A stretch of 64,000 bases of DNA from Chitinophagales bacterium. GTDB lineage: Bacteria > Bacteroidota > Bacteroidia > Chitinophagales > LD1. The notes under the pieces were generated by a model. The model was not told the DNA's origin. It worked only from the letters and a program-made list of their open reading frames with translations, and did not search any database. Where the stretch lies: NCBI GenBank assembly GCA_016787045.1, contig JAEUVA010000010.1, forward strand, positions 100,531 through 164,530, in the 5' to 3' direction. Below, piece after piece: positions 15,375 to 31,349 of this stretch. The first letter of the stretch is position 1. Each line of letters begins with the position of its first letter. Both the position numbers and the translations under genes were made by a program.

Positions 15375-15378
15375 GTGA

Positions 15379-16035
15379 TTAATTTTTAAAATACGGAAAC
15401 CGCTTGGCAGTTTTCTTTAGCAGTAAGTCCATCAACGCATCGGCATCGGTAAAAGAGCCCCGCGAAATATCTTTTTTAAAACTCCAGATGAGCTCACCTT
15501 TTTGCCCTTCGTAGAGCATAAACGTACCGCTGCTTTCGTTGTTTGGGGCATTAACCCCTGCAAAATATACGAGCGCTAAACCAACCTCTTGCGAGAGTAT
15601 TTTATCTGTATGTATTTCGCCAAAAAGTACCGCATCTACCTCTAGCATTTTGGCAATTTCATCTTTGGTAAAATTGGCTAAAGTGTCTAAAGAAATGTTT
15701 TGTCTGCGCATCAGCAGGTTGGTTTTATCGGGGTCTTGCACGGTTACTGTCATTCCTGCCTTACCGCTTTCGCGCATCAAAAAATGATACATACTTCTTT
15801 GGCAAGTGAGCGCATCGCGTTTAGCATAAGTCGCCAAACTATCTTTAGGTATTTGTTCATCCTCTAATATCAAAGCGCTCTCATCATAACTTATTTTCAT
15901 GGGCAAAACGGCAATCATCTTGTGCGATGCCGTTAGTACTTTTACGTTGGGATGCTCAAACACTGTTGCCGGTTGAGCAAACAGTGGAGTGTTGCACATT
16001 GTATAGAAACAAATCAAAAATATAATCAAGCGCAT
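15379..16035 (-). CDS. hypothetical secreted protein
   Basis: Signal peptide MRLIIFLICFYTMCNTPLFAQ. 4 nt from the downstream GMC oxidoreductase start, so probably cotranscribed. Confidence 0.55.
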   Translation of the reverse strand: MRLIIFLICFYTMCNTPLFAQPATVFEHPNVKVLTASHKMIAVLPMKISYDESALILEDEQIPKDSLATYAKRDALTCQRSMYHFLMRESGKAGMTVTVQDPDKTNLLMRRQNISLDTLANFTKDEIAKMLEVDAVLFGEIHTDKILSQEVGLALVYFAGVNAPNNESSGTFMLYEGQKGELIWSFKKDISRGSFTDADALMDLLLKKTAKRFPYFKN

Positions 16036-16075
16036 AGGTCAAATACTTTTTTCCGAAAATAGAAAACAGGTTGGA

Positions 16076-17275
16076 TTATTCTTTTGTTTCAAATGTAACG
16101 CGCGCGGTGTATAGGTTTTCTACACTCATTGCCAAACGAAAATACCCTGAAAGAACTTGATTTTGTTCATCGTAGTTGATGTGGCTAAATGCGTATCTCA
16201 AACTCTCAGTTGTTAATGCAGTAGAGAAGTTAACTTCTATAATAATATGCTCAAATCCGTTAACCGTAAAACTACGGTCTTCTTTAGCAGAGTAACTGGT
16301 TTCAGTAATCGGCAACAAAGAAGAGTTACTCTCTACAAAACGGTCAAACACCAAATGTTCGGCTTTAATAACAAATGAAGTGCCGGCTTCGTTATCGCAT
16401 TTAAATGCAAATGGAATTTTGATACTGCCGGCCATGGGGTTTTGGCTCCAGTTTTTCATGCGGTTGCTGCTCTCGTGCATTAGCCCAATGAGCCATGTTT
16501 TAGTATTTGAAAAATCATTTTTGTTGGCCTTGAGCCACCACACCCACTCGTATGGGTGCAACTCCGGGTGGCAACTGTGGTTGCAGTCTAAACAGTAGGT
16601 GCCATAAAAGCCCATGGTGGGGTGGTTGGTTTCAAAATTTGGGTGCTGTGCCAAACTCTTAGTCTCCGGTAAGGTGGGATAAAACAGATAGTTTAACTGC
16701 GGCCTAAAAGCACGAGGAGGTGTAAGCTCACAATGCAAGCGATAATTGCGAATGTCTATCAAGGAAGTATCGCGCACAAACGGAATAGAGTCGTAGTTGC
16801 GGTGGTGCGATTTACGAATGTCTTGCCTTCCTATCTTTTTTTGCAAATCGTACGCATAAAATATTTTATCTAAGTATTTTTTTAAATGAAAGTTGAGGTC
16901 AAAGTTGATGTCGTACTCAGTGTATTCTTCTGTACTGCTTTTGCTATTGCGCACCACAGTGCCTACAAATTTTTGTTTTTGCATATCTATGGCTCGCCAG
17001 TTGTATCCGCCAAAAGCGTGTATCATCCAACCCACTAAAAACACTTTGTGGTGTTGCTTTCGTTTTTCAATCATTGAGTCCAGTAAAGCGGGTTCTGCCA
17101 AATCCGTAATCCACTCATGGATAGTATCGTTGGTGGCAATGGCATGGTTAGGTTGCAGCAAATAGTTAAAATCAGCAGGAGTACTGTGGCGCGTATCAAT
17201 CAATAAACTTGTTTGTGCGCAAAGTGTTTGCACTAATATTGCCGTGGCTAAAAGCCAACCGTATTTTACCTGCAT
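16076..17275 (-). CDS. hypothetical secreted protein (His/Cys-rich central region)
   Basis: Signal peptide MQVKYGWLLATAILVQTLCAQ after moving the start from TTG 17311 to ATG 17275. Contains CLDCNHSCHPELHPYEW. No family recognised. Confidence 0.55.
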   Translation of the reverse strand: MQVKYGWLLATAILVQTLCAQTSLLIDTRHSTPADFNYLLQPNHAIATNDTIHEWITDLAEPALLDSMIEKRKQHHKVFLVGWMIHAFGGYNWRAIDMQKQKFVGTVVRNSKSSTEEYTEYDINFDLNFHLKKYLDKIFYAYDLQKKIGRQDIRKSHHRNYDSIPFVRDTSLIDIRNYRLHCELTPPRAFRPQLNYLFYPTLPETKSLAQHPNFETNHPTMGFYGTYCLDCNHSCHPELHPYEWVWWLKANKNDFSNTKTWLIGLMHESSNRMKNWSQNPMAGSIKIPFAFKCDNEAGTSFVIKAEHLVFDRFVESNSSLLPITETSYSAKEDRSFTVNGFEHIIIEVNFSTALTTESLRYAFSHINYDEQNQVLSGYFRLAMSVENLYTARVTFETKE

Positions 17276-17316
17276 GGGAACAATTATCTTTAAACTTTTT
17301 GCAACACCCAATTAAC

Positions 17317-18408
17317 ATGCCCGATAAATTTCAGATACAACGTTTAAACGATTGGTTCCCATTAAACGATTGCCCATTAGTAATTGCCGGGCCTTGCAGT
17401 GCAGAAGGCGAGGAGCAGGTGATGAATACCGTTTTGCAAATTGTGGAGCACACACAAGGTAAAGTACAGATGATACGCGCAGGTATTTGGAAGCCCCGCA
17501 CTCGCCCCAATAGTTTTGAAGGCGTTGGCGAAATTGGTTTGCCCTGGGTGAAAAATGCAGGCCGCGCTGTGGGGCTACCTGTTACGGTAGAAGTGGCTAA
17601 CCCGGAGCATGTAGAGGCCGCGCTCAAAAATGAGATAGATGTGCTTTGGATAGGTGCACGCACCACAGTTTCGCCATTTGCCATACAAGAAATAGCGGAT
17701 GCTTTAAGAGGTGTAGATATTCCGGTATTAGTCAAAAACCCCATTAACCCTGATTTGGAGTTGTGGATTGGCGCCATGGAGCGGCTTAATCAGGCAGGAG
17801 TAAAAAAGTTGGGCGCCATACATCGTGGTTTTTCCTCGTACGAAAAAACAATTTACCGCAACCCACCTATGTGGGAAATACCTATTGAACTGCGCAGACG
17901 ATACCCGCAAATTCCCATCATACTTGACCCCAGCCACATGGGCGGCACTCGCGATTTGATAGCCACCCTGTCTCAACAAGGCATGGATATGGGTTTTGAT
18001 GGATTAATGATTGAAAGCCACATTAACCCCGATAAGGCGTGGAGCGATGCTAAGCAGCAGGTAACCCCACAGCGATTGGGCGAAATTTTGAACGCCCTGA
18101 TTGTACGCAAACCTACCATGGCAGATAGTGGTTTACAATCGCTACACGACCTGCGTGCCCGTATAGATAGAATAGATGATTATATTATTGAATTACTCGC
18201 AGAGCGAATGGGTATTTCTGAGCAGATAGGAGAGGTTAAAAAAGAAAATCAACTGGCTGTACACCAGAGTGCCCGCTGGGCTCAAATAGTAAAACGTGCT
18301 TTAGAAAAAGGCCAAACCGGTGGGCTTACCGAAGATTTTATTCTCAAGCTTTTTCAGCAAGTGCATAACGAAAGTATTCGCCACCAAAGTAAGGTGATGG
18401 GATTGTAG
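17317..18408 (+). CDS. bifunctional 3-deoxy-7-phosphoheptulonate (DAHP) synthase / chorismate mutase type II
   Basis: N-terminal type I-beta DAHPS/KDO8PS-like barrel (LVIAGPCSAE, ILDPSHMGG). C-terminal chorismate mutase helices (LRARIDRIDDYIIELLAERMGISEQIGEVK). Start moved to ATG 17317. Confidence 0.8.
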   Translation: MPDKFQIQRLNDWFPLNDCPLVIAGPCSAEGEEQVMNTVLQIVEHTQGKVQMIRAGIWKPRTRPNSFEGVGEIGLPWVKNAGRAVGLPVTVEVANPEHVEAALKNEIDVLWIGARTTVSPFAIQEIADALRGVDIPVLVKNPINPDLELWIGAMERLNQAGVKKLGAIHRGFSSYEKTIYRNPPMWEIPIELRRRYPQIPIILDPSHMGGTRDLIATLSQQGMDMGFDGLMIESHINPDKAWSDAKQQVTPQRLGEILNALIVRKPTMADSGLQSLHDLRARIDRIDDYIIELLAERMGISEQIGEVKKENQLAVHQSARWAQIVKRALEKGQTGGLTEDFILKLFQQVHNESIRHQSKVMGL

Positions 18409-18419
18409 GGGGAATGTTT

Positions 18420-19787
18420 TTACCCTAACCCTGCCTCTTTGATAGCGCTCACGTAATCAAATCGCTCTAACAGTCCGGTATCAAACTTGCCTGAGCGAAA
18501 CTCTTCGTTATCCATTAACACAATGTGAAAGGGAATAGTGGTTTTTACGCCTTCAATAATAAATTCATCCATAGCCCGCTTCATTTTTACAATACATTCT
18601 TCACGGGTTTTGGCGCGGCAAATTACTTTGGCCAACATACTATCGTAGTAAGGTGGAATGGTATAACCCGCATAAATGTGTGTATCCACCCGAACTCCAT
18701 AACCTTTTGGGGTGTGCAGGGCAGTAATTTTTCCGGGGCTGGGGGCAAAATTATTGAGCGGGTCTTCGGCATTTACGCGGCACTCTATGGCGTGCATTTT
18801 TTCAGGAAAATACAACATGCCTGAAATAGGCGTACCCGCTGCTATAGTAATTTGCTCTTTGATTAAGTCAAAATCCATCACCTCTTCGGTTACGGTATGC
18901 TCAACTTGTATGCGGGTGTTCATTTCCATAAAGTAGAAGTTCTTATCTCTATCTACCAGAAATTCTACAGTGCCCACACTTTCGTAATTAATGGCTTTCA
19001 CCGCTTTCACGGCTGCTGCTCCCATTTTTTTGCGCAGCGCTTCGTCCACAAATGGCGATGGGGCTTCTTCTACCAATTTTTGGTGCCTGCGCTGTACCGA
19101 GCAATCGCGCTCGCTCAAGTGGCAGGCCTCGCCATATTGGTCACCGGCTACTTGTATTTCTATATGGTGTGGCTCTACTATAAATTTCTCCATGTACACC
19201 CCATCGTTACCAAACGAAGCACCGGCTTCGGTCCGTGCCATGTTGTAGGCGTTTTCTAAGCCCTTTTCGTCCCACACTATGCGCATGCCTTTGCCACCGC
19301 CACCGGCAGTCGCTTTCAAAATAACCGGGTAGCCAATCCGCACCGCATCTTTTTTGGCATCTTCTATACTTTCCACCAAACCCTCGCTGCCGGGTATGCA
19401 GGGCACACCGGCTTTAAGCATGGTTTCTTTGGCAGTTATTTTATCGCCCATGGCGCGTATCATATCGCCTTTTGGGCCAATAAATTTGATTTTGTATTGT
19501 GCGCACAAATCACTGAACTCGGCATTTTCGGCCAAAAAGCCATAGCCCGGATGAATGGCATCGGCATTGGTCAACTCTGCCACGGCCATAATGTTTTTCA
19601 TGTTCAGGTAAGAATCTTTGCTTTTGGGTGGGCCTATGCACACGGCTTCATCGGCAAAACGCACGTGCAAGCTATCGCGATCGGCAGTAGAGTACACGGC
19701 CACGGTTTTAATGCCCATTTCTTTACAAGTGCGAATAATGCGCAGGGCAATTTCGCCCCGGTTGGCAATCAGTACTTTTTTAAACAT
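18420..19787 (-). CDS. accC: acetyl-CoA carboxylase biotin carboxylase subunit
   Basis: [26 protein letters not shown]..., ATP-grasp [24 protein letters not shown]. 455 aa. Confidence 0.9.
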
Positions 19788-19978
19788 GGCGCAAGTTTAG
19801 TATTTAGCCCGAAGTGTAGTATCACTTTACCCAAAAAACCATTTCATAATTTGCCCAAAGCGTATATATTTGCCGCCCGCTTGCCGAAAAGGCAGGCGCT
19901 TTTTTTCGCCAAGCCGTGTGGTTAGGGATAAAACAGTGGGGATAGAAAAGCCGAAGCGTTCATCTATAAATTTGCGCT

Positions 19979-20509
19979 GTGAAGGGACTAAGGGAGTTTG
20001 AAATACCATACATCGGGCTAAAAATCGGCATACACCGGTTTGAATACGATATAGATGGCCAATTTTTTCGCCACTTTGAAGATTCTCCCATTAAGGAGTG
20101 CAAAGTGAGGGTAAAAGTGGAGTTTGAAAAAAAGGAAACGTTCTTTATTATCAAGTTTTTTGTTGACGGCACAGTAAGTGTAGAGTGCGACCGCTGCCTG
20201 GTTCCGTTTGATAAAGAGATTTTTGGTGATTATACCTTATACGTAAAGTTTGCCGAAGACCCCAATGCTTTAGCACATGAAGATGAGGTGCTCTTTATTA
20301 GCCGCGATGAACCGATTATAGACTTGGCGCAGCCGGTTTACGAGTACATTAACCTTTGCCTGCCTATGCAGGTGGTGCACCCCAAAAAGCCCAATGGCGA
20401 AGAGGGCTGCGACCCGGAGGTGCTCAAAATCCTCAACAAAAAACCCGAAGCTAAACCTACCGATGAAATTGACCCTCGTTGGGCAGTGCTCAAAAACCTT
20501 AAAAATTAG
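19979..20509 (+). CDS. yceD: DUF177/YceD-family protein (large-subunit rRNA accumulation protein)
   Basis: Lies immediately upstream of rpmF, as is typical. Contains CDRCL...PF and a conserved acidic C-terminus. GTG start is uncertain. Confidence 0.7.
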   Translation: MKGLREFEIPYIGLKIGIHRFEYDIDGQFFRHFEDSPIKECKVRVKVEFEKKETFFIIKFFVDGTVSVECDRCLVPFDKEIFGDYTLYVKFAEDPNALAHEDEVLFISRDEPIIDLAQPVYEYINLCLPMQVVHPKKPNGEEGCDPEVLKILNKKPEAKPTDEIDPRWAVLKNLKN

Positions 20510-20544
20510 AAACAAATTATTTGACCATCACAAAAACGTAAGTC

Positions 20545-20730
20545 ATGCCAAATCCAAAACACAAAATCTCTAAACAAAGAAGAGACAAGCGCAGAACTCA
20601 CTACAAAGCAGAAGCACCCACTTTGGGAGTGGATCAAACCACTAACGAAACGCACTTGCTGCACAGAGCACACGAAAGCGAAGGCAAACTCTACTACCGC
20701 GGCAAAGTGGTCATGGAGTTGAAAAAATAA
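20545..20730 (+). CDS. rpmF: 50S ribosomal protein L32
   Basis: [21 protein letters not shown] is a typical L32 N-terminus. 61 aa. Confidence 0.9.
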
Positions 20731-20754
20731 CCCCCAAAGAGCTATTTTTTTTTG

Positions 20755-20783
20755 CCCGTTCGGTTCGCTGAACGGGTTTTTTT
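20755..20783 (+). terminator. rho-independent terminator after rpmF
   Basis: Stem CCCGTTC / GAACGGG with an 8-nt loop, followed by T7. Confidence 0.75.
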
Positions 20784-20833
20784 GTTTGTAGGTGGTACCT
20801 ACTGTTCAACTCATTAATTAATTGCAAGCAATC

Positions 20834-22186
20834 ATGTTTACCTCATACCAATCTAAAATTAAAGAAGCGCTGCTGCTGGCCTTACCCATTATTGCCGGGC
20901 AGTTGGGGCAGGTGCTTATGGGCTTTTTTGATACTGTACAAATTGGCGGCCTGGGGCATACTTACATTGCCGCCACGGGCTTTGCCAATGGCATTTATTG
21001 GGTGATAATACTGCTTGGCATGGGCGTGCTGTTTGCCGTATCGCCATTGGTGAGTGAGGCCTTTGGTGCCGAAAAAGAATACCGCGCCATAGGTGTGCTG
21101 CGCTCGGGTTTGCTGGTATCGGTAGTGTTATCGGTAGTGTTTGTGATAGTTACAGAAATTGTGCGCGCCAACTTAGATGTTTTTAGGCACCCCGAAACAG
21201 ACACTCTGTTAGGTGCGCGGTATTTGCGCGTGATTAATTACTCTACACCGTTTGTTTTCTTTTTTATGTGTGGCAAGCAGTTTTTAGATGGCATGGGCAA
21301 AACCCTGCCCGGTATGTACATTACATTGGGTGGCTTGGCGCTCAATTGTTTTTTGAACTGGGTGCTTATCTACGGCCACTTAGGCGCTCCGGCATGGGGC
21401 GTAGAGGGGGCTGCATTGGCCAGTGGTATTTCAAAATTGGCGATGACGGTGGCTTTGTTTGTGTACATTTTTCAAAGCCGAAAGGTGAAGGATTTGCAAA
21501 CGGCCTACCACAGCCAGACGGAAAATACTACTGCCGGATATACTACGCATGTTTGGCCTATACTTACCATAGGGGTACCTGCGGGCTTGCAGTTTTTTTG
21601 GGAGGTAGCGGCTTTTAGTGCCGGGCAGGTCATGAGCGGGTGGATAAGCATAGAAGCCGAAGCCGCGCACATGATTGCTATTGGTATGGCCAGCATTACG
21701 TTTATGGTCATTACCGGGTTTTCGGCTGCCGGCACTATACTCACCGGTTTTGCTTATGGCGAAAAAAATGCGGAGGAGGTGAGAAAAACAGGTGTAGCTA
21801 TTCTGCTGATGACATTAGCTACTGAAGTTGTTTTTGCGCTTGTATTTGTACTGCTGCACCGCCAGTTACCACTACTTTATACCAATGAAGTAGTGGTGAT
21901 AGAAATGGCTGCAGCCATGCTTTTGTTGGCGGCACTTTTTCAACTCAGCGATGGGTTACAAGGTGCAGCTGCGGGCTTGCTGCGCGGCATACAAGATGTA
22001 AAAGTACCTGCATTAATAGCGCTCATTTCGTACTGGGGCATTATGGTACCTGCCTGTTATTATTTGGCATTTGAAGCCCGCATGGGGCTTGCCGGCATTT
22101 GGCTGGGGTTTGTAATTGGATTGACCATTGCTGCTGTTGGCATGTGGGCACGTTTTGGGTATATGGCCAAGCGGTTGAGGTTTTAA
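20834..22186 (+). CDS. MATE family efflux transporter
   Basis: ~450 aa with 12 predicted hydrophobic helices. N-terminal LLLALPIIAGQLGQVLMGFFDTVQIG and central LLRGIQDVKVPA are typical of the MATE/NorM family. Start moved to ATG 20834. Confidence 0.8.
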   Translation: MFTSYQSKIKEALLLALPIIAGQLGQVLMGFFDTVQIGGLGHTYIAATGFANGIYWVIILLGMGVLFAVSPLVSEAFGAEKEYRAIGVLRSGLLVSVVLSVVFVIVTEIVRANLDVFRHPETDTLLGARYLRVINYSTPFVFFFMCGKQFLDGMGKTLPGMYITLGGLALNCFLNWVLIYGHLGAPAWGVEGAALASGISKLAMTVALFVYIFQSRKVKDLQTAYHSQTENTTAGYTTHVWPILTIGVPAGLQFFWEVAAFSAGQVMSGWISIEAEAAHMIAIGMASITFMVITGFSAAGTILTGFAYGEKNAEEVRKTGVAILLMTLATEVVFALVFVLLHRQLPLLYTNEVVVIEMAAAMLLLAALFQLSDGLQGAAAGLLRGIQDVKVPALIALISYWGIMVPACYYLAFEARMGLAGIWLGFVIGLTIAAVGMWARFGYMAKRLRF

Positions 22187-22246
22187 AAACTACCAACACA
22201 AACTTATACAAACAATGAGATTCGCAGTAGGATTGCATCAAATCTT

Positions 22247-22281
22247 TTTACAAATTGGGAATTTAATTCCCAATTTGTAAA
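22247..22281. repeat. 35-bp perfect palindrome ending 8 nt upstream of the ATPase ATG
   Basis: TTTACAAATTGGGAATT-T-AATTCCCAATTTGTAAA. It shares its 16-nt arm core with the palindrome at 23432-23480. Confidence 0.9.
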
Positions 22282-22289
22282 TTTGCAAC

Positions 22290-23435
22290 ATGATACCAAG
22301 AGCCATAGAACCCGTACTTAAAAAAGCACTGCGGCAATTTCCGGTAGTGGTACTTACCGGCCCTCGCCAATCGGGCAAAACAACCATAGTAGAGAACCTG
22401 GCAGGGTATAAATATGTGAATCTAGAACACCCCGATTTGCGGGAATATGCTCGTGAAGATTCCCGCGGATTTTTAAGTGAATACGGTAAAGGCAAGTTAG
22501 TTATAGACGAGGCACAATATGTACCTCAACTTTTTTCGTACATACAGGCAGAAAGCGACAAGCACAAAAAGCCGGGTAAATTTGTTCTTACCGGCTCACA
22601 AAACTTTCTGCTCCTACAAAATATTTCGCAAAGCTTAGCAGGGCGCACCGCCATTTTAGAGCTGCTGCCTTTATCAGTGGCTGAATTACAAGCAGCTGGT
22701 AAACTTCCGGCCACCTACGAGCAATTCATTTTCAAAGGCGGGTATCCACGATTATACGGAACAAAGGCCAACAAACAACTGATGATGAGCGGCTACATTC
22801 GCACTTACGTGGAGCGCGATGTGCGCCAAATCGTAAATGTGCAGAACCTTTCGTTGTTCAATAAATTTTTAAAAAGCTGTGCAGCGCGTGTTGGGCAATT
22901 ATTAAATTACAGTTCTATAGGTAATGAACTGGGTATAGACCATAAAACCATCATGAAATGGATGTCTATACTCCAAAGCAGTTATATCATTTACTTGCTA
23001 CAACCCTATCACCGCAATTTTAATAAGCGATTAGTTAAAACACCAAAGTTATACTTTTATGATACCGGCCTTGCCACCGAACTGTTGGGTTTGCAAGATG
23101 TAAAACATCTGTACACTTATCCGCAGCGAGGGGAATTGTATGAAAATCTTGTACTGACGGAGTTAATCAAGCGTAGATTAAACAACGGAACTCAGCCAAA
23201 CCTGTGCTTTTGGAGAGACAGTACGGGCAATGAGGTAGATTTTATAGAAGAAATAGGTTCAAATACCGAGGCGTATGAAGTGAAATCTGCAAAAACCATA
23301 ACTCCCACCTTGTTCAGAGGGTTAGAAACGCTCAAAGCGTTAAGTGGATCAAATATAGGGCTAAATTTAGTGTATGGTGGAGTTGAAAATACTCAGCGAA
23401 ACGGTATTGATGTTTTAAACTGGAAAGGGCTGTAG
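22290..23435 (+). CDS. AAA ATPase with a DUF4143-like C-terminal (PD-(D/E)xK-like) domain
   Basis: Walker A LTGPRQSGKTT, Walker B LVIDEAQY. C-terminal GNEVDFIEE...AYEVKSAK (D..E.K). 381 aa, which is typical of the COG1373-type architecture as I recall it. Confidence 0.7.
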   Translation: MIPRAIEPVLKKALRQFPVVVLTGPRQSGKTTIVENLAGYKYVNLEHPDLREYAREDSRGFLSEYGKGKLVIDEAQYVPQLFSYIQAESDKHKKPGKFVLTGSQNFLLLQNISQSLAGRTAILELLPLSVAELQAAGKLPATYEQFIFKGGYPRLYGTKANKQLMMSGYIRTYVERDVRQIVNVQNLSLFNKFLKSCAARVGQLLNYSSIGNELGIDHKTIMKWMSILQSSYIIYLLQPYHRNFNKRLVKTPKLYFYDTGLATELLGLQDVKHLYTYPQRGELYENLVLTELIKRRLNNGTQPNLCFWRDSTGNEVDFIEEIGSNTEAYEVKSAKTITPTLFRGLETLKALSGSNIGLNLVYGGVENTQRNGIDVLNWKGL

Positions 23436-23480
23436 TGTTTTACAAATTGGGAATCAGATTCCCAATTTGTAAAACACTAC
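23432..23480. repeat. 49-bp perfect palindrome overlapping the ATPase stop codon
   Basis: GTAGTGTTTTACAAATTGGGAATC-A-GATTCCCAATTTGTAAAACACTAC. It lies between convergent genes, so it could also act as a bidirectional terminator. Confidence 0.9.
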
Positions 23481-23506
23481 GCTCTCTTAAATCTAAAGAG
23501 CAATGG

Positions 23507-24724
23507 TCATTGCTTTATTAACTTAAAATTATACCGTTTTTCATTACTTACAATAGTTACAAAATAAATGCCTGCTCCGGTTTCTGATACATCCAGCGCG
23601 GCATCGGTTTGGTTGGCACTTAGTGTGCGGCTGAGTACAATTTGACCGTTGATATTGGTAATGCTTACTATGCTTTCGGTACCACTATATGGCAAGCGTG
23701 TGTGGAGTTGCTCGGTAAATGGGTTGGGGGAGATAATGGGATGTTCCGTTGATATTGTTTGACTGTTTGACAGCATAGATGTTTCGTCCGTTTTTGCTGA
23801 GTTTATTTCAGTTGTAAACCCACACATCGCACCTATCTTGGCCTCAAAAACAGACCCTGCATCTGCCACCTCAAACCCCGGGTTAAGTTCTATAAACTCA
23901 CCTGCCATAAATGTTACAATTCCGTGATTTCCATTAGCCGTGCCCGGAATGAGTGGCTGTATTTTAGTAGTTCCGGTTGTTTTAATTGATTTATCAGCAT
24001 ACCAGTTTTGCTCCAATTGCACTATAATTTTTGTGGTCATTAAAACCAAACCATTAAACGCCTTTACAATGTATAATCCTGAAGATAAGCCATTCAACGA
24101 TACAACGCGCGGTTCATGTGGCATTAGGTCATTTACATGCGTTTGCTTTGCTATTTTACCCTGTAAATCCAATACTACTAATTGTAGTTGCTGAACGAGT
24201 TCTGATATTTCAACATTGATAGTATTGCCCGAATGCAAAAGTGTTGGGTAAATCTTAATTGTAAGGTTGCTTGGTAAATTTTCATCGTCAAATTTTTGCT
24301 CATAAAATAAATCATCAGTTTTAGCCGCTATTGTTGTTCGAGTTATAGCACACGGATTTATTTCAGCTACAAAATCAGTTCCTGAATAGAACCCGTTATT
24401 TAACTCAATATAAGTGCCAGCGTGATAACCAACAGTAATACCATCATTTATACTTTGAGTAGAGACTATTGAGCCTGTTACCGAATAGCCATTTGAGAAA
24501 TTCAGAACCCCAAACAAATTCTCACTTGGCACACAATAATTCATTCTCACAGTAGCTGTGTTCGTTTCACTTCCATCTCTCAAATAACTAAGCAAGTTGG
24601 TGTAACTTGGAGTTAAGCAAACAAAGTAACTGGGTCCGTTGCCGCAGGTGGTCAGCCCCCTAACCCCCAAAGGGGGAATTTCTACGCAGTTGCGCTTTTC
24701 GGTGTTACTCCGGTAGTGGCACAT
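23507..24724 (-). CDS. T9SS-domain protein carrying two sorting-domain modules in tandem and no signal peptide (possible fused or decayed gene)
   Basis: An internal CTD-like block (IYPTLLHSGNT...GLYIVKAFNGLVLMTTKIIVQ) is followed by a second module that ends in a terminal CTD (ISPNPFTEQL...GIYFVTIVSNEKRYNFKLIKQ). Neither M1 nor M61 is followed by a signal peptide. Confidence 0.5.
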   Translation of the reverse strand: MCHYRSNTEKRNCVEIPPLGVRGLTTCGNGPSYFVCLTPSYTNLLSYLRDGSETNTATVRMNYCVPSENLFGVLNFSNGYSVTGSIVSTQSINDGITVGYHAGTYIELNNGFYSGTDFVAEINPCAITRTTIAAKTDDLFYEQKFDDENLPSNLTIKIYPTLLHSGNTINVEISELVQQLQLVVLDLQGKIAKQTHVNDLMPHEPRVVSLNGLSSGLYIVKAFNGLVLMTTKIIVQLEQNWYADKSIKTTGTTKIQPLIPGTANGNHGIVTFMAGEFIELNPGFEVADAGSVFEAKIGAMCGFTTEINSAKTDETSMLSNSQTISTEHPIISPNPFTEQLHTRLPYSGTESIVSITNINGQIVLSRTLSANQTDAALDVSETGAGIYFVTIVSNEKRYNFKLIKQ

Positions 24725-25181
24725 ACTTATACTTTACTTCTACTTGGTAATCGGGCGGGATGTTTTCTACAGCGCAGAACATGCTTCTTGTGCCAGGAAA
24801 CTGTAGTTGCGCAGTATCGCGTTGAATCATACTTACATCATAAATTAGCTTCTTTAGACAAGTATCTTTAGATAAACTTGCTTGAAAGGTATCTCCGTAG
24901 AAATAAGACATCTTCCCAATCATTATATACACAAAATCGGTTTCATCAATTGGGAAGGCAACCGGTGGCGAAAAGGTGCAGTCGGTTATTGAATCAATTT
25001 GAGATTTTCTTCGCATGATGTATTCATACTCGTATAGGTTGCCACCGCAAGTAAATGTATAGTACTTTTCTATAAAAGGATCAACATAGTAGGGAGCGGA
25101 GGCGCAATGCGCCTTGTCTTTACAACAGCTACCTAATAATGTAGCGACAGCTACAATTACTCCAATCGCTATTGGCTTCAT
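24705..25181 (-). CDS. hypothetical lipoprotein
   Basis: Lipobox MKPIAIGVIVAVATLLGSC followed by CKDKAHC. Its ATG overlaps the upstream TGA stop (ATGA). Confidence 0.6.
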   Translation of the reverse strand: MKPIAIGVIVAVATLLGSCCKDKAHCASAPYYVDPFIEKYYTFTCGGNLYEYEYIMRRKSQIDSITDCTFSPPVAFPIDETDFVYIMIGKMSYFYGDTFQASLSKDTCLKKLIYDVSMIQRDTAQLQFPGTRSMFCAVENIPPDYQVEVKYKYVPLPE

Positions 25182-25402
25182 TGTATAACAATTTTCTGTG
25201 TAAATGATGTTGTGGAAGTTTGCACCTTAACTATATACATGCCCTGAGCTAAATTTGCGGTGGGAACTTGTAACGGTGAGCCAAACTGAAGTTCTGCCGA
25301 CTCGGTTGAAATCACATTAACACCGTTTAAATCATAAAATTTTACTTGTTGGTGACGCATCGGCAGAGCCGAAGCTATAACACCAACAAGGGCGAAATAC
25401 AT
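25178..25402 (-). CDS. orphan T9SS C-terminal sorting domain (74 aa, likely a remnant of a cargo gene)
   Basis: VKFYDLNGVNVIS...LAQGMYIVKVQTSTTSFTQKIVIQ is a complete CTD-like block with no cargo domain and no signal peptide. Confidence 0.45.
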   Translation of the reverse strand: MYFALVGVIASALPMRHQQVKFYDLNGVNVISTESAELQFGSPLQVPTANLAQGMYIVKVQTSTTSFTQKIVIQ

Positions 25403-25512
25403 AGGGTGTTCTTTTGCTCTTCGGTGGGGTCTCTCGTGCCGAAAAACAACTCATGATGTGGCGGTTAGAACACCCACCAACAGGAAAATTACTACATATA
25501 TACCATAAAAAA

Positions 25513-25809
25513 CTACTTCAACTTTGGCATACATGTTATGCCCGGTTTTTGCTCCTGCTGCTGTTTGTCTTTTTCATTGCACACCACTTGGTGATAAGTG
25601 ATGTAGTTTGTAGGTTTTGAAATTAAATCATAGCGCATGCTGTCTATAAAAAAATTGTATGCAGCGTAGTTCGGAAACTGATCCGAGCAAATGAGTTCTC
25701 CCGTAGAAATTCTTTTCACACAATCATTCACACAGTCAAAGCACTTTTTACAGCCGGACCAAAACACCAGCAGCACACTACTTACTACAGTAATAGTTAT
25801 TCTTCTCAT
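25513..25809 (-). CDS. small Cys-rich lipoprotein (paralog of 25778-26065)
   Basis: MRRITITVVSSVLLVFWSGC lipobox, then KKCFDCVNDC...LICSD. The start could also be 25833 or 25842. The 5' end overlaps the upstream paralog. Confidence 0.55.
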   Translation of the reverse strand: MRRITITVVSSVLLVFWSGCKKCFDCVNDCVKRISTGELICSDQFPNYAAYNFFIDSMRYDLISKPTNYITYHQVVCNEKDKQQQEQKPGITCMPKLK

Positions 25810-26065
25810 ACAAATATTGAATATTTTTGACATTGTTATCACACAGCTTCACATTTTCGGTAGGAGCTACCAAGGTGCAGCCGCTATTTAGTAGGAATTG
25901 ACGAGAACCCTGCCAGTTTGCTTGCCCGGAGTAATCAGTGCTGCATATCAGGGTAGTAGCAGAGCCACATTGGTAACACTCATTTTTACAGGTAACGCAT
26001 TTAGTACAGGACTGGCTAAACAAGATTAACAAACAGGCAAAAATCAATAGTGTGGGAGATTTCAT
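25778..26065 (-). CDS. small Cys-rich lipoprotein
   Basis: MKSPTLLIFACLLILFSQSC lipobox, then TKCVTCKNECYQC...LICSTD. Its ATG overlaps the upstream TGA stop (ATGA). Confidence 0.6.
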   Translation of the reverse strand: MKSPTLLIFACLLILFSQSCTKCVTCKNECYQCGSATTLICSTDYSGQANWQGSRQFLLNSGCTLVAPTENVKLCDNNVKNIQYLYEKNNYYCSK

Positions 26066-27705
26066 TGCTTTAATATTTTAAATGATAGGTAATTTGTACA
26101 AGTAGTGAACAAGAAAACATAGTAAATGCCGCCCGGCAGTTCTTCAAGTGATATATCTCCGAATGTTTTACCGGCTGACACTAACGCTGAGTTGGCATTG
26201 TATATTTTATAATCTAAGCCGGATTTTATCTCTTCTGTAACCTCTCTTGATGAACCTAAAACTTCAATTTTTCCATCCGTTGGATTAGGCGCGACCAGCA
26301 CTTTGCACGGTTCTATACTGTTAGTAATCATTTCCTGCCAATCTGTTTTTGCATTTGGGCCGCATCCGCTTAAGTATTCATAAGTAACTGTAAATGTTTT
26401 GACTTGCATGCCCATACAATTATAAATTGCTAAATCTACAGTTGCTATATGTTGTGATTGTGTAAAATATGCAAACGGATAACCGTTCCAATATTGTGTG
26501 ATCGGACTATTGATAGATTGTATGTCTTCAAAAATAATAGCCCCTGAACTATTTTTTATCATGACATGGTACCAACCTGCACCATAGGAATAAAAAGCCA
26601 TGTTGGTGCCGAAGCAATTAGTGGGTGTAGGGGGGTAATATGGAGCACTACAGTTTAAAAATGCGCATTGATTGGCATAATCAATATTTAAACCAAAATC
26701 ATAAGCCGGATCGTCCACTGCCCCACACGGTGCAATTTCTGCTACAAAAACACCGCCCGGCTCTACAACAAACCCCGGTTGTATATCAATAAAACCCCCA
26801 GCCCTAAACTTTATTTTTCTGTTAGATTTAACTATGACAGGTCCTGTGCTCATGTTTGGGGCACCCACATCGCTGCCGGCTCTAATAAATAGCCGTCTTT
26901 GGGTATTGTTTGGTAGTTTGTCCGAAATATCTTGGTATAGCATATAGTCCCCACAACAATCTCTATAAAGTTCTACATCATCTAATTGCACGCCTATTGA
27001 TGCGCAGGGGATTTCAACATCAGATTGATCATAAACCACCAAATCTATTGCAATCCAATCGTAACCGAATTCAAAAATTTTAATAGGGTCTATGGTCACT
27101 TGCTGCCAGCTATCGGCATTTGCAGTTAAAATAGGCGCTAAATAGGTTATGGGTTTTGTGGCGTGTATCTTTCTATAGTTAGCAGCACAGCTAACAGCAT
27201 CAATGTCGCTATTCTCTGAATGATAGCTAACTTCTGTTTTAGATAATCTTACACGCAGGTAATACTTATAACTACTGTTGTATTCGTACAACCCAAAACT
27301 GCTTGACCCCGGTGCTGAAAATAACTTTACATTGGCTTTAAAGTAATATAATCCTTCATTCAAAGCGTTTTGTAAATCTTGTTGTATAAGCTCCTCTGGC
27401 GTAAAGTATACTAAAAAATTACCTGTTGTGGGTAATACGCTGTTCATAAAGGGGTCAAAATTTCTGCAGCCAGAAAGCGTTGATAGCCAATCCGGAGAGT
27501 GTATAGCGCTGGTTCCGCTTGAGGTAGACGAGGAAACGGTTTGAGTTCTTGATGTCCAATCTTTTACCTTTTCAAACTGAGCTAAGCCTGTAGGGCAATC
27601 ACCGGTTATGTTAGGTGTCTCAAAGGAGTGATTACGTATTAAGTTTTGGGATTGAGCCGTAGCCCAAATCGCAAACAACAGGGATATTGTAAGAGGAGTT
27701 TTCAT
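26062..27705 (-). CDS. secreted T9SS cargo protein of unknown function
   Basis: Signal peptide MKTPLTISLLFAIWATAQSQ. Motif GGFIDIQPGFVVEPGGVFVAEIAPCG. C-terminal CTD VAPNPTDGKIEV...GGIYYVFLFTTCTNYLSFKILKQ. Confidence 0.7.
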   Translation of the reverse strand: MKTPLTISLLFAIWATAQSQNLIRNHSFETPNITGDCPTGLAQFEKVKDWTSRTQTVSSSTSSGTSAIHSPDWLSTLSGCRNFDPFMNSVLPTTGNFLVYFTPEELIQQDLQNALNEGLYYFKANVKLFSAPGSSSFGLYEYNSSYKYYLRVRLSKTEVSYHSENSDIDAVSCAANYRKIHATKPITYLAPILTANADSWQQVTIDPIKIFEFGYDWIAIDLVVYDQSDVEIPCASIGVQLDDVELYRDCCGDYMLYQDISDKLPNNTQRRLFIRAGSDVGAPNMSTGPVIVKSNRKIKFRAGGFIDIQPGFVVEPGGVFVAEIAPCGAVDDPAYDFGLNIDYANQCAFLNCSAPYYPPTPTNCFGTNMAFYSYGAGWYHVMIKNSSGAIIFEDIQSINSPITQYWNGYPFAYFTQSQHIATVDLAIYNCMGMQVKTFTVTYEYLSGCGPNAKTDWQEMITNSIEPCKVLVAPNPTDGKIEVLGSSREVTEEIKSGLDYKIYNANSALVSAGKTFGDISLEELPGGIYYVFLFTTCTNYLSFKILKQ

Positions 27706-27707
27706 AT

Positions 27708-29273
27708 CTACTTACCTTTTTTTAGCTGCTTCTCTAAATTAATCAGATGTAATGTCAACTCCTCAATTTTAGCTAAGAGCATAGCGTTCATTTTAGCTAA
27801 ATCTATTCCTTGCTCTGTTACTTCTTGAGCGCTGGGTATTCCGGGCAGATGTTTGTTCTTTTTTACAAACTTTTCTACATCGCTCAATGGCATTAGCTTG
27901 TAATCTTTATCAAATACATAATCACTCCAATCTCCCGTAGTTTTTATAGCACACTTAAACCGCTCTGCCAGTATTCCTTTTTCTACATATAGCGAGTAGC
28001 AAGAGTTAGTGGTACAGGGTGTTGATACATTGCCTATCTGTACAGTTCCTGTAATTTCGGCATTCCCTGCAACCTTTAGTTTATCGTTCGCATTACCGTT
28101 GTGTCCTACATCTACCAACAGGTTCCCTTCCTCTTCGGTAATGATGTGCCTCGCATTCCCTGTATTGCCAACCCAACGTAGTTGAGCGTTCCAGTCAGGA
28201 GTTGCCTTGTTTTCAACTAAGTCCACATACACATCATCAGTACCATTTCTCCGCACTCCTAAACTGCCACTCACCACTAATTTATCATTCCCCCCTCCAT
28301 TGGCCACCCCCGGGTCTATTACAAAATCGCCATTGATTTCGGTAATGAGGTGGCGGGGTTGGCCGGTATTGGCCGGGTTCATAAACCGGATGGCACTGGT
28401 ACCGGTGGTGGGGCGGGTAATATCTAATGTAGTAGAGCCATCGGTATCATACAAAACCACGGTAGAGTTGGTGTTTGGGGCAATACCTATTCCAATGTTT
28501 CCATTGCTGCTAATGCGAAAATATGGGTTATCAGACGGGGTCATGGTTGGTGTTTGAGTTGGCGCAGGTTGGTCTATGTTCATCAACACCGAAAAATTTT
28601 GCGGCAATGCCCGCATGTCAAATTGTGCAAAGGTTTGCATGTCTATATCCATTGGGTAGCCGGTGGCAATGGCTCCATTGCCAAATATGCCAAAGTTAAT
28701 GCGCTCATCGGTACTGTTCACCACACCAAAGGCCGGTACAGATTTGGGGATGGTGGAATTGTTGGTGTTATCAAGAATATCATTGCGGCTGTTAATCAAC
28801 ATACATCCCCCGGGTTCGTTAGCATCTCCCACATTAGTAAATATCATTAGTATTCGCTCATCTTGGTCTTCTACACCATACACCAGATTCCCCAAAATGT
28901 CGCCACTATACAAGTCGTTATTGTACCCCTTGGTAGAAATGTGCAGGTCAATAGCCGGAGATATACCTATGCCCACTTGCCCTTTATGGTTAACTATAAA
29001 ATCGGAAACAGTGGTAGGCCCGGCTTCGGTGTGTGCTGCCTCAATGTAGTTTCCCGGAGTTTGGCAATCAAAATCCTGTTTAAGCAATAGGTTAGGTCCA
29101 CTACAGCCACCAAGCACATGCAACTTGCCCGATGGATATATAGTGCCAATGCCCACATTCGTACCATCGTCAAAAGCACTGCTGCCGGTTTGCCCGGTTT
29201 GGTAAAAGCCCTGTGTGTAAGCGGTGCTCATACATAGTGTTGCGAGCAGAAAGGTAAGTAATTTTTGTTTCAT
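27708..29273 (-). CDS. secreted tail-fibre-like protein with a conserved helical C-terminal domain
   Basis: Signal peptide MKQKLLTFLLATLCMSTAYTQ (start moved to ATG 29273). Repeated GIG motifs (NVGIGTIYPSGKLHV, QVGIGISPAIDLHI, NIGIGIAPNTNSTV). C-terminus DWSDYVFDKDYKLMPLSDVEKFVKKNKHLPGIPSAQEV...LLAKIEELTLHLINLEKQLKK. Confidence 0.65.
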   Translation of the reverse strand: MKQKLLTFLLATLCMSTAYTQGFYQTGQTGSSAFDDGTNVGIGTIYPSGKLHVLGGCSGPNLLLKQDFDCQTPGNYIEAAHTEAGPTTVSDFIVNHKGQVGIGISPAIDLHISTKGYNNDLYSGDILGNLVYGVEDQDERILMIFTNVGDANEPGGCMLINSRNDILDNTNNSTIPKSVPAFGVVNSTDERINFGIFGNGAIATGYPMDIDMQTFAQFDMRALPQNFSVLMNIDQPAPTQTPTMTPSDNPYFRISSNGNIGIGIAPNTNSTVVLYDTDGSTTLDITRPTTGTSAIRFMNPANTGQPRHLITEINGDFVIDPGVANGGGNDKLVVSGSLGVRRNGTDDVYVDLVENKATPDWNAQLRWVGNTGNARHIITEEEGNLLVDVGHNGNANDKLKVAGNAEITGTVQIGNVSTPCTTNSCYSLYVEKGILAERFKCAIKTTGDWSDYVFDKDYKLMPLSDVEKFVKKNKHLPGIPSAQEVTEQGIDLAKMNAMLLAKIEELTLHLINLEKQLKKGK

Positions 29274-29376
29274 AAGTAGAGGATATTTAAGGTGAGGAAA
29301 AAACAAGCTACTACCCACCGCACAGCATTGGTGATAAGTACCCATAAAAACAACCGGTAAATTACAGAGAAACTGC

Positions 29377-29390
29377 GGGGGGGGGGGGGG
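29377..29390. repeat. G14 homopolymer (C14 on the operon strand) ~100 nt upstream of the surface-protein operon start
   Basis: Fourteen consecutive G in an otherwise mixed, AT-leaning intergenic region. Candidate slipped-strand phase-variation tract. Confidence 0.9.
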
Positions 29391-29646
29391 CAGAGTTTAC
29401 ACCACCGAAATTTGCCAAACAAGTAAGGGGAGTAAAAAGCAGCATGGTGGTGTGTTTGTAGCTGCAAAGCAAAGCAGGTATTTTGTATATGTCAACAAAA
29501 ACGCATGGTTTTATTTCTGCACTTGTAGTGCAAAATTAAATTTGGATGGTATGTGTTTTTTGTTTTATTAGTGTGCGAGCAAACATGTAAGTAGCTCTGA
29601 GCTAACCTGATGTTGAATTGCGTCAAATAAACTCTTACTATCGGGA

Positions 29647-29693
29647 GCATGTTGGCGCAGTTTGTGTACATGGCCAAGCGGTTAAAGTTTTAA
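29647..29693 (+). pseudogene. remnant of a MATE transporter 3' end
   Basis: It translates as SMLAQFVYMAKRLKF*, compared with GMWARFGYMAKRLRF* at the end of the intact MATE gene. 39/47 nt are identical. An in-frame TAA lies 7 codons upstream, so no gene body remains. Confidence 0.7.
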
Positions 29694-29728
29694 TTACTCT
29701 TGCTTAATGCCATTGGCAAAAAAAATGG

Positions 29729-30541
29729 TTACTCCTGCTTGATGCCGTTAGCAAAAACGAGTATTTTCTCTTCGCCTTCTTTGCTGATAAAGGTGCCTTT
29801 GCCATTGCGTTTGTTATCGGTCCAGGTGCCGGTAAACATTTCTCCATCGGCCCAGGTAAAAATGCCTGTGCCATGCATTTTTCCGTCTTTAAACTCGCCT
29901 TCGTATTTATCGCCATTGGCAAATAAAAATATGCCTTTACCGGTGCGGTTGTTGGCTTTGAATTCGCCCATGTAGGTATCGCCATTGGCAAAAGTCATTT
30001 TGCCGAAACCCTCTTTTTGGTCTTTTAGAAAATAACCCTCGTAAACATTTCCATTCCGATAAAAATATTTGCCTTTACCGGTTTTCATGGCCTGCACAAA
30101 TGCACCTTCATATTTTTCGCCATTGGCATAAACCATGGTGCCGGTGCCGCTAATTATTCCATTGGTAAAATCTCCGGTGTATTTGTTGCCGTTGGCGTAG
30201 GTGTAAGTACCCCATCCGCTCATGACATCGGCATTAAACTGGCCTACATAGTTATCGCCATTCGGAAAGTCATAATTGCCACGGCCATGGCGTTTATCAT
30301 TTACCCAATCGCCAAAATAGCTGGAGCCATCTTTAAAAATGGCGCGGCCAACTCCGTGGCGCATATCGTTTTGCCATAGGCCGTCATACAAAGAGCCATC
30401 ATAATATATAGCGCGGCCTTTGCCGTGTTTTTTACCGTCTTTGTAGTCGCCTTCGTATTTGCCGTTAATGTATAGCTGCTCCTGCGCGGTGGCAGAGCTT
30501 ACGGTGAGTATTAGAGCAATCAGGGGTAGCCAGTTTTTCAC
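29729..30541 (-). CDS. secreted MORN-repeat protein
   Basis: Signal peptide MKNWLPLIALILTVSSATAQ. About 10 repeats of the Y.G.[WF]..[DG]K.HG.G type. GTG start. Confidence 0.8.
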   Translation of the reverse strand: MKNWLPLIALILTVSSATAQEQLYINGKYEGDYKDGKKHGKGRAIYYDGSLYDGLWQNDMRHGVGRAIFKDGSSYFGDWVNDKRHGRGNYDFPNGDNYVGQFNADVMSGWGTYTYANGNKYTGDFTNGIISGTGTMVYANGEKYEGAFVQAMKTGKGKYFYRNGNVYEGYFLKDQKEGFGKMTFANGDTYMGEFKANNRTGKGIFLFANGDKYEGEFKDGKMHGTGIFTWADGEMFTGTWTDNKRNGKGTFISKEGEEKILVFANGIKQE

Positions 30542-30705
30542 AATTGCAGGTTTTTTGTACTGCTGTGATACGGCATTGTGGGTGCCAAGGTTACATTAAG
30601 ACCTTATGTGATAGGGGTATTTAAGCATGAGGGCAAGGTTCTTTTTTTGACTTTGCCAGGTGTTTCGGGGCGATTAATGTCTGAAACAGGGGCTATTTCA
30701 GCCAA

Positions 30706-30915
30706 TCAGTTTTTTAGCATACTGCGCACAGCGCTATACAGGCCGGCTACTAAAAACACTATGGCCAATAGCATGGTCAGGTATGGTTTGGTATTGCCCA
30801 TCCACGCATCTAATTTATAGCCAATAAAAAAGCCCAACAGGGCAGCGGCTATAATCTGAAAGCCAATGCCCGAAAATTTTAGCGCGTTGGAATATTTTTT
30901 TTGAGGTTTTTCCAT
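30706..30915 (-). CDS. small two-helix membrane protein, AtpZ/AtpI-like
   Basis: 69 aa. KFSGIGFQIIAAALLGFFIGYKLDAWMG...LLAIVFLVAGLYSAV resembles the ATPase_gene1 family as I recall it. Confidence 0.5.
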   Translation of the reverse strand: MEKPQKKYSNALKFSGIGFQIIAAALLGFFIGYKLDAWMGNTKPYLTMLLAIVFLVAGLYSAVRSMLKN

Positions 30916-30938
30916 CGCCTAGGATTTGTGTGATGAAA

Positions 30939-31349
30939 CTACGCAGTAGCTACCTTATCGGCAGAAACTCGTTTGTCGGTAGCATTGGTGTGCGATACGC
31001 TCATGCCCATTACGCACTTGCCGGTAAACTTGGCACCCTCTTGCACAACTAGTTTTTTGATTTTTATATCGCCCACTATATTGGCAGTGGCGCTGAGTAT
31101 AAGCAGTTCGCTCACTTCAATGTTGCCTTCTACACGGCCATCAATGTAGGCGTTTTGGCAAAGTACATCTCCGGTTATTAAACCACTGGCGCCTACCACT
31201 ACTTTTGCTTTAGAGGTTACGTTGCCGTTTACTTTTCCATCTACACGAATATCGCCTTCTGTGCTTACATCACCGGTTATGGTGGTGCCTTGCCCAAACT
31301 GGTTCATCAGGTTGGGGCCGGCAGGTCTTTCTTCTTTTTTGCCGAACAT
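30939..31349 (-). CDS. bactofilin (polymer-forming cytoskeletal protein)
   Basis: Beta-helical repeats: TTITGDVSTEGDIRVDGKVNGNVTSKAKVVVGASGLITGDVLCQNAYIDGRVEGNIEVSELLILSATANIVGDIKIKKLVVQEGAKFTGKC. Confidence 0.85.
   Translation of the reverse strand: MFGKKEERPAGPNLMNQFGQGTTITGDVSTEGDIRVDGKVNGNVTSKAKVVVGASGLITGDVLCQNAYIDGRVEGNIEVSELLILSATANIVGDIKIKKLVVQEGAKFTGKCVMGMSVSHTNATDKRVSADKVATA

Follow-up and report, generated by a model that had tools for sequence, protein, structure and literature searches.

A 64,000-nucleotide (nt) stretch of a Chitinophagales contig (JAEUVA010000010.1, positions 100,531 to 164,530; hereafter the window) carries a gene for an ATPase-nuclease of the DUF4143 family that lies between two perfect palindromes, one ending just before the start codon and the other overlapping the stop codon. 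What are such palindromes for: are they DNA sites for the encoded protein, RNA elements such as terminators, or the ends of a mobile unit? A sequence-only reading of the window had described the bracket, compared it with a second ATPase gene at 11–12 kb and proposed that the protein binds the palindromes. Our analysis confirmed that two palindromes bracket the gene, and it partly supports the interpretation as a whole. The upstream palindrome appears from sequence comparison to be a conserved DNA site in the promoter of a widespread, uncharacterised ATPase-nuclease family, most likely the family's own operator, so that a promoter-embedded 5′ site would be the rule and the bracket the exception. 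The locus is composed as follows.

22247–22281, strand-neutral: 5′ palindrome, perfect (17+1+17), ending 8 nt before the ATG at 22290; proposed operator overlapping the predicted core promoter.
22278–22285, plus strand: TAAATTTG, which matches the −7 box of Bacteroidota sigma-A (TAnnTTTG), overlaps the right-arm end and predicts a transcription start at the A of ATG 22290.
22290–23435, plus strand: gene for an ATPase-nuclease with AAA_14, winged-helix and DUF4143 (PD-(D/E)xK) domains, the PADLOC candidate PDC-S01 (from Pfam, PADLOC and an AF2 model).
23432–23480, strand-neutral: 3′ palindrome, perfect (24+1+24), overlapping the TAG stop at 23433–23435 and lying between convergent genes.

The coordinates of both palindromes, the 8-nt distance to the ATG and the overlap with the stop codon, as read earlier, are all borne out by the sequence. 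Both copies share the unit TTTTACAAATTGGGAAT-N3-ATTCCCAATTTGTAAAA; the arm core noted before is indeed common to all four arms, the shared unit being slightly larger than first written. The 16-mer TTTACAAATTGGGAAT has four perfect matches in the window, and these are exactly the four arms. The two copies differ in the central triplet (TTA vs. CAG) and in a G+C-richer 6-bp arm extension, GTAGTG/CACTAC, found on the 23432–23480 copy alone, and a comparison of their flanks revealed no shared sequence beyond the arms. Perfect arms of at least 17 nt should not arise by chance in 64 kb, the expected frequency being about 1e-5 to 1e-4. As a control, we inspected the 34 non-overlapping open reading frames (ORFs) of the window with at least 200 aa: a long dyad ending no more than 12 nt upstream of the start was found for two of them, both ATPase genes. 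The half-site variant ATTG/CAAT present in the window copies is rare among 114 copies sampled from the matches listed; since both copies share this rare variant, they are either cognate sites for the same protein or products of a recent duplication.

The identity of the gene, proposed earlier as a Walker ATPase with a DUF4143 nuclease-like C-terminus, is backed by Pfam and by invariant catalytic residues. The AAA_14 domain was detected at 1.3e-28 (100.1 bits, cut-off 27) and the DUF4143 domain at 4.3e-49 (166.8 bits, cut-off 28.1), and the PADLOC model of PDC-S01 (PDLC04790) covers residues 1–361 at 1.9e-105. Walker A/B (G24-T32, D73/E74) and the nuclease motif D317/E330/K332 are invariant across 62 homologues. 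The closest homologues of the window protein share only about 50–54% identity with it, and their labels name several phyla, among them Bacteroidota, Nitrospiraceae, Planctomycetota, Pseudomonadota and Lokiarchaeota. In the AF2 model (pLDDT 92, pTM 0.91) the predicted order is an AAA+ domain, a helical lid, a unit of three helices plus a beta-wing (about residues 185–257) and the nuclease fold; the modelled winged helix between AAA+ and PD-(D/E)xK is a candidate sequence-specific DNA-binding domain. Foldseek placed the archaeal Walker ATPase 2QEN at the top, followed by STAND proteins (RPP1, MalT, Apaf-1, Avs4) and Orc1/Cdc6 proteins (2QBY among the matches). Sequence searches of the PDB with the DUF4143 protein gave P-loop matches only and no solved structure of PDC-S01, and exact-protein look-ups of P0001 and P0191 found no record. 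PDC-S01 was ranked the fourth most common defence candidate across prokaryotes in a 2026 survey, where PDC-S01 and PDC-S27, the candidate encoded at 11–12 kb, are both described as an ATPase fused to a PD-(D/E)xK domain (PMC12988326). The window proteins match both models strongly and have this same architecture. In PADLOC the two are unvalidated single-gene phage-defence candidates, and in a published assay with one representative per candidate, neither protected E. coli from T4, T5 and T7.

The upstream dyad is also found in two of three homologues that were picked by protein homology, being TTTCTTACAAATATGGAATCCAATTCCATATTTGTAAGAAA upstream of the ATG in L121 and CTTTACAATCTGGGAATTAAATTCCCAAATTGTAAAG in L124. 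The search pattern TTACAA-N4-GGAAT-N3-ATTCC-N4-TTGTAA, derived from the protein-picked homologues, matched in its degenerate form at least 120 loci in metagenome contigs and none in viral contigs. Among the matches listed, to which all counts of copies given below refer, 122 copies were classified with a hidden Markov model built from the 62 homologues. Directly 5′ of a DUF4143 ORF stood 76 of the 122; two lay 3′ of such an ORF (L205, L223), 16 beside a DUF4143 gene fragment, 26 were solo and two were not evaluable. The 76 copies point to palindromes specific for this gene family and, as the sequence-only reading suggested, to binding of the palindrome by the protein. That reading would have been refuted by a palindrome spread widely and independently of ATPase genes, or by a lack of other family members with matched 5′ and 3′ palindromes; neither holds outright. 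The motif does stand without an ATPase gene in 26–42 of the 122 copies, but some of these are relics of gene loss, as described below.

Plasmid homologues, likewise ascertained by protein, gave a similar picture: a long dyad ends 0–9 nt before the ATG in 6–7 of 8. Its carriers are Runella, Emticicia, Allochromatium, a Wolbachia plasmid and Moraxella, that is, Bacteroidota, Gamma- and Alphaproteobacteria. These dyads are clade-specific, those of Allochromatium and Runella rosea being clear variants of the motif and that of Moraxella an unrelated one with 23-nt arms. No regulator gene is conserved among the neighbours of the three protein-picked and the plasmid homologues examined. Two dyad copies upstream of a single DUF4143 gene were seen in L242 (470–555) and in L213.

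In 36 of 66 unique loci, 4 nt separate the end of an exact TAnnTTTG box from the start codon, and allowing one mismatch raises this to 46 of the 66. In Flavobacterium psychrophilum this box is located at −12 to −5, and leaderless mRNAs account there for only 5.5% (PMC9723704). By this register, transcription of the DUF4143 gene is predicted to start at the A of the ATG, which would give a leaderless mRNA, and the window dyad would span about −43 to −9, i.e., the promoter region. In 34 unique loci, the window among them, 9 nt lie between the end of the search pattern and the ATG, with the flank TTGTAAATTTGYnnnATG. A second spacing class, which also contributes to the loci with the box, has its dyad end 19–24 nt upstream of the ATG, the TTTG of the dyad being near −33. 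In the first class (9 nt) the −7 box is covered by the dyad, in the second (19–24 nt) the −33 region, so that in Bacteroidota PDC-S01 genes the dyad is situated inside the predicted core promoter. The geometry of this predicted promoter, in which 4 nt follow the −7 box up to the ATG, accounts for the 8-nt spacing at the DUF4143 gene. The equal 8-nt spacing at the PDC-S27 gene had been taken earlier as a sign of common architecture. This is not supported: the distance is 6 nt in PDC-S27 orthologues and 26–51 nt in plasmid homologues, and the PDC-S27 gene has no TAnnTTTG box in register with its start codon. The equality of the two distances is probably a coincidence.

Is the dyad recognised as DNA or as RNA? 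At four variable positions, the arms co-vary: 206 of 280 cells are Watson–Crick complementary vs. 148.5 ± 6.2 after permutation (maximum 171). Mismatches in gene-oriented copies are rare and show no excess of G:T (10) over A:C (7). The sequence blocks TTACAA and GGAAT are kept beyond what mere pairing would need, and within each half-site the distance between them is about one helical turn. A scan for the simple intrinsic-terminator pattern called neither of the window palindromes, whose stems are A+T-rich, with nominal loops of 1–3 nt and no T-run after them; the idea that the palindromes serve as terminators found no support here. Rfam returned nothing above threshold, its only match being the generic hairpin mir-3202 (32.7 bits vs. 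a 90-bit cut-off). Taken together, the co-variation, the conserved blocks, the missing terminator pattern and the lack of an Rfam match favour recognition of double-stranded DNA. As RNA, the 5′ copy is calculated to fold at −18.7 kcal/mol (z = −5.5) and the 3′ copy at −39.3 kcal/mol (z = −10), and a stem of this stability may leave the 23432–23480 copy a role as a terminator or roadblock.

We propose, and regard as probable, that the upstream palindrome serves as an operator embedded in the promoter, to which the ATPase-nuclease binds by its own winged helix; this would ensure tight autorepression of a leaderless transcript in a horizontally moving single-gene unit. The left arm would then contain the −33 region of the promoter, and the right arm would have the TA of the −7 box at its end; transcription would begin on the A of the ATG to yield a leaderless mRNA. 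Acting through its winged helix as a dimer or a higher oligomer, the ATPase-nuclease would bind the dyad and occlude the promoter, so that a potentially toxic nuclease would be kept under tight autorepression. In horizontal transfer, the site would move with the gene as one self-contained unit. The copy at the stop codon would represent a cognate site, working as an auxiliary operator or roadblock (by looping or insulation), or else a leftover of operator duplication. The sequence comparison and the model show the motif with its fixed position, its conservation and the co-variation of its arms, the promoter box and the winged-helix fold, whereas the identity of the binding protein, the repression, the transcription start and any role of the 3′ copy are inferred.

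The copies outside the promoter position require a separate account. With at least 17 of the motif's 22 fixed bases near the stop as the criterion, a 3′ copy was detected in two of 66 full-length genes, the window gene and L223. Bracketing is not typical of the family, in which the 5′ copy alone is conserved. In L214 a distant 451-aa DUF4143 homologue is situated between identical dyads (620–652 and 2474–2506) beside another DUF4143 fragment; this resembles a tandem array, and arrays of units may produce apparent brackets. The L205 dyad (1066–1098) lies 12 nt after a DUF4143 stop; the ATG of the next gene, which is unrelated, follows the dyad at 6 nt, and the dyad may drive or control that gene. 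A 16-mer scan of a 596-Gb genome collection listed mostly chance single half-sites; the informative matches among those listed are L069, a full solo palindrome, and L106, a near-palindrome. L069, from a Bacteroidetes metagenome-assembled genome, has the window-type half-site and lies between convergent genes for a pyrimidine-dimer glycosylase and PBP1A. No DUF4143 relic ORF was found beside L069 or beside the 3′ copy of the window.

Loss of the gene can be followed directly in one set of loci. L206/L149 and L130/L243 are alike through the left flank, the palindrome and the 16 bases that follow it; past these, L206/L149 have a 1,156-nt DUF4143 ORF, and L130/L243 have 25 nt and then an outer-membrane-protein gene. 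In L130 and L243 the ORF is gone, and the palindrome and promoter are kept directly before the outer-membrane-protein gene. Moreover, 16 listed copies abut internal or C-terminal fragments of the DUF4143 gene. Both the loci without the ORF and the copies next to fragments indicate that the site outlives the gene, so some solo copies are demonstrably relics of DUF4143 ORF loss. The 3′ copy of the window may be either an auxiliary operator, a roadblock or a terminator between convergent genes, or a relic. In L206 (7744–10410) the DUF4143 ORF, which lacks its last codons and stop, runs in frame into the signal peptide of the outer-membrane protein.

Several points weigh against the proposed autogenous operator. 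The metagenome sample was ascertained by the motif, so that the 62% of copies preceding a DUF4143 ORF tell what the motif accompanies and are not an estimate of the share of DUF4143 genes that carry it. Among homologues picked by protein, L125 (Nitrospiraceae) has a degenerate version only, and the Ruminococcus plasmid homologue L265 shows no clear dyad upstream. The transcription start is a prediction from the promoter motif. Template-switch correction of quasipalindromes is an established mutational process, and it could have produced the co-variation of the arms without selection. The rarity of a matching 3′ copy in the DUF4143 family makes a function of this copy in the window uncertain, and 11 of the 18 solo copies that have an ORF on either side lie between convergent genes and are therefore not predicted by an operator model alone.

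The second ATPase gene offers a parallel at a different dyad. Its features are these.

11181–12596, minus strand: gene for a protein with ATPase_2, a MarR-like winged helix and a C-terminal domain, the PADLOC candidate PDC-S27 (Pfam; PADLOC 1.1e-201).
12605–12648, strand-neutral: 5′ palindrome of the PDC-S27 gene, arms AACTTGGCTATAAGT around a 14-nt spacer, 8 nt from the ATG; kept in L249–L251.
11128–11179, strand-neutral: 3′ palindrome of the PDC-S27 gene, at the stop; by its spacer, in mirror orientation to the 5′ copy.

The parallel drawn earlier is sound insofar as the PDC-S27 gene has palindromes both at its start side and at its stop. Both are kept in the orthologues L249–L251 (86–87% identical, with the same AraC neighbour). 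The arms of the 3′ palindrome are invariant in three orthologues (19/19 and 12/12 positions), whereas the adjacent intergenic DNA decays, which argues that the 3′ copy is functional in the PDC-S27 family and, by analogy, would favour a function for the 3′ copy of the DUF4143 gene. Farther away, the dyads change: L252, a 63% homologue, has a different one, TCATTTCCGCCATAACT, twice upstream and not downstream, and split dyads occur 26–51 nt upstream in 4–5 of 7 plasmid homologues, e.g., TTGGCGGAAT-N14-18-ATTCCGCCAA. The 14-nt spacer of 12605–12648 matches that of L250 (3947–3998) at 11/14 positions when reversed and at 5/14 when read directly, the flanks being collinear, and blastn gave as the best match to L250 a reverse-oriented one at 90%. 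This suggests that the spacer was flipped between orthologues by template switching or by recombination of the arms. The AraC-family gene (12667–13674) is kept beside the PDC-S27 gene in three related genomes, and the DNA beyond the 3′ palindrome differs. In L250 a 2.1-kb insertion starts about 40 nt from the outer edge of the 3′ palindrome.

Other explanations of the palindromes were weighed against the operator. They might act at the RNA level, the 5′ copy as a stem in the 5′ untranslated region that masks the start codon (to control translation or to serve as an RNase III site) and the 3′ copy as a bidirectional terminator or 3′-end stabiliser. Stable folding of both palindromes as RNA (−18.7 and −39.3 kcal/mol), the location of the 3′ copy and of many solo copies between convergent genes, and the G+C-richer 6-bp stem extension on the 3′ copy all agree with this. 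It is nevertheless quite unlikely in our estimation, since the terminator scan calls neither copy and no T-run follows the stem, the −7 box places the predicted start downstream of the 5′ palindrome, mismatches have no G:U bias, the blocks TTACAA and GGAAT are conserved and not pairing alone, Rfam gives no match above threshold, and the sequence identity of the 5′ and 3′ copies would be left unexplained. Recombination or mobility is another possibility: a cruciform-capable palindrome would be recognised via the winged helix and cut or recombined by the ATPase-nuclease, so that a palindrome-gene unit, with or without a second palindrome, would form a self-mobilising or self-excising cassette, solo palindromes being its footprints or landing sites by analogy with a REPtron or an attC cassette. 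The bracketed cases (the window, L223, L214 and the PDC-S27 orthologues), the solo copies, including L069 with the same half-site between housekeeping genes, the ORF-precise presence or absence that leaves the palindrome (L206/L149 vs. L130/L243), the 16 listed copies adjoining gene fragments, the flipped PDC-S27 spacer, the spread of about 50% identical homologues over phyla and the negative defence assay in the literature would all fit such a cassette, and the footprint and landing-site analogy with it. Most units, however, have a single copy; target-site duplications and common outer boundaries were looked for and none were found; the window copies are alike in their arms only, the unit sits inside a larger island with 45-bp repeats of its own, and viral contigs gave no pattern matches. 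The fixed register to the ATG and to the promoter box argues for a primarily regulatory role, and both the cassette and the reading of solo copies as its traces appear unlikely to us.

A more restricted alternative accepts the 5′ copy as an operator and takes the 3′ copy of the window as a functionless relic, left behind by an operator duplication or by the loss of a neighbouring DUF4143 unit, its perfect symmetry maintained by template-switch correction. The rarity of 3′ copies (2/66), the documented solo palindromes left after ORF loss and the occurrence of tandem operators and tandem genes (L242, L213, L214) speak for this alternative, in our view a minor possibility. The arms of the 3′ copy are, on the other hand, 100% identical to those of the 5′ copy in spite of the rarity of this half-site variant in the family, the 3′ palindrome is perfect over a greater length than the 5′ one, no gene remnant is seen beside it, and at the analogous PDC-S27 locus the 3′ arms are invariant over three orthologues. 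A global regulator encoded by the host, rather than the ATPase, might also bind the dyad, as the solo copies adjoining housekeeping genes could suggest; we hold this to be very improbable, because the motif accompanies the gene from phylum to phylum and differs between clades, is found within the window only at the DUF4143 gene, and has no conserved regulator for a neighbour.

The autoregulated operator as proposed here resembles several known arrangements. In type II restriction-modification systems, C proteins are small Xre-type helix-turn-helix regulators whose palindromic C-boxes overlap the promoter, and the transcript is often leaderless. The DUF4143 unit would likewise be a mobile, potentially toxic nuclease module with autoregulatory palindromes overlapping the promoter; unlike in the C protein systems, the presumed regulator is the ATPase-nuclease itself via its internal winged helix, and the unit is a single gene without a methyltransferase. 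Archaeal Orc1/Cdc6 is an AAA+ winged-helix protein with origin recognition boxes beside the orc1/cdc6 gene. The likeness lies in such a protein having inverted elements directly beside its own gene, whereas here there is neither an AT-rich unwinding element nor an origin context, a nuclease domain is added and the site is embedded in the predicted promoter. Auxiliary operators and DNA looping are known from lac O1/O2 and gal OE/OI. The second, identical operator-like site about 1.2 kb from the promoter-proximal one is reminiscent of these, but the distal site is located here at a stop codon between convergent genes, and looping would be a proposal. In REPtrons (RAYT/TnpA-REP), too, a gene is bracketed by a palindrome that also occurs solo between genes, often at gene 3′ ends; here, in contrast, bracketing is rare, the 5′ copy keeps a fixed register to the start codon and the 64-kb window has only two flanking copies. 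A REPtron or IS200-IS605-like element was rejected as a candidate: there is no HUH/Y1 transposase, and Pfam finds AAA_14 and DUF4143 only. A terminal-inverted-repeat transposon or miniature inverted-repeat transposable element was rejected as well, with no target-site duplication and no repeat shared by the outer flanks of the two palindromes.

None of the papers found and checked on DUF4143, COG1373, PDC-S01 and guilt-by-embedding describes the cognate palindrome, the promoter geometry or any regulation. To the extent that the literature could be searched, clade-specific dyads at the start codons of two very common, uncharacterised families of ATPase-nucleases have not been described. A conserved cognate site offers the PDC-S01 protein, for which no ligand or activity had been demonstrated before, a candidate DNA ligand, and it implies a predicted circuit, the autorepression of a leaderless transcript. 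In genomes, the dyad can also be used as a sequence tag to find units, whether intact or decayed, and possible trans-acting sites. The PDC-S27 parallel suggests a design principle shared by mobile single-gene ATPase-nuclease modules. If the palindromes were mobility sites after all, PDC-S01 and PDC-S27 would have to be regarded as selfish DNA elements, either instead of or in addition to being phage-defence genes.

The DUF4143 unit was suspected earlier to be the first gene of a putative island, and the comparison with related genomes bears this out. The island is delimited as follows.

22142–22186, plus strand: left copy of an imperfect 45-bp direct repeat (3′ end of the MATE gene), the left island boundary (blastn vs. 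L255).
22187–29648, strand-neutral: 7.46-kb variable island, missing from L255/L256.
29649–29693, plus strand: right copy of the 45-bp MATE-end repeat, the right island boundary (blastn vs. L255).

The relatives L255 and L256 (about 90–94% nt identity; L255 about 93%) are without 22187–29648. By blastn, L255 aligns to window positions 17537–22186 and then to 29649–35762, and its positions 4609–4653, the last 45 nt of the MATE gene, align to 22142–22186 and also to 29649–29693. Besides the DUF4143 unit, the island encodes mostly proteins with type IX secretion system (T9SS) tails, and no integrase was seen in it. The next gene in L255 is convergent and directly adjoins the MATE stop, no palindrome lying between the two. 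It had been suggested earlier that the upstream palindrome could double as the MATE terminator; since it lies inside the inserted island and L255 has no palindrome after MATE, it does not, and with the negative pattern scan the terminator candidate was rejected. The closest relatives, L253 and L254 (98% nt identity to window 14835–22187), have different DNA directly after the MATE stop. At the 3′ end of MATE, a variable hot spot, at least three alternatives occur: the window island, the L253 sequence and, in L255, nothing. The differing DNA of L253 (7355–8016) and L254 (2768–3429) includes a degenerate 21-nt tandem array with the consensus ACGCGAGCGAAATTGCTGCAC.

One more perfect palindrome, separate from the above, was noticed in the window at 43767–43798, just after a 1316-aa ORF (39797–43747). 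With its 15-nt arms TGCAAAAGCCGCCAG/CTGGCGGCTTTTGCA it is G+C-rich, looks like an ordinary terminator and is unrelated to the ATPase dyads.

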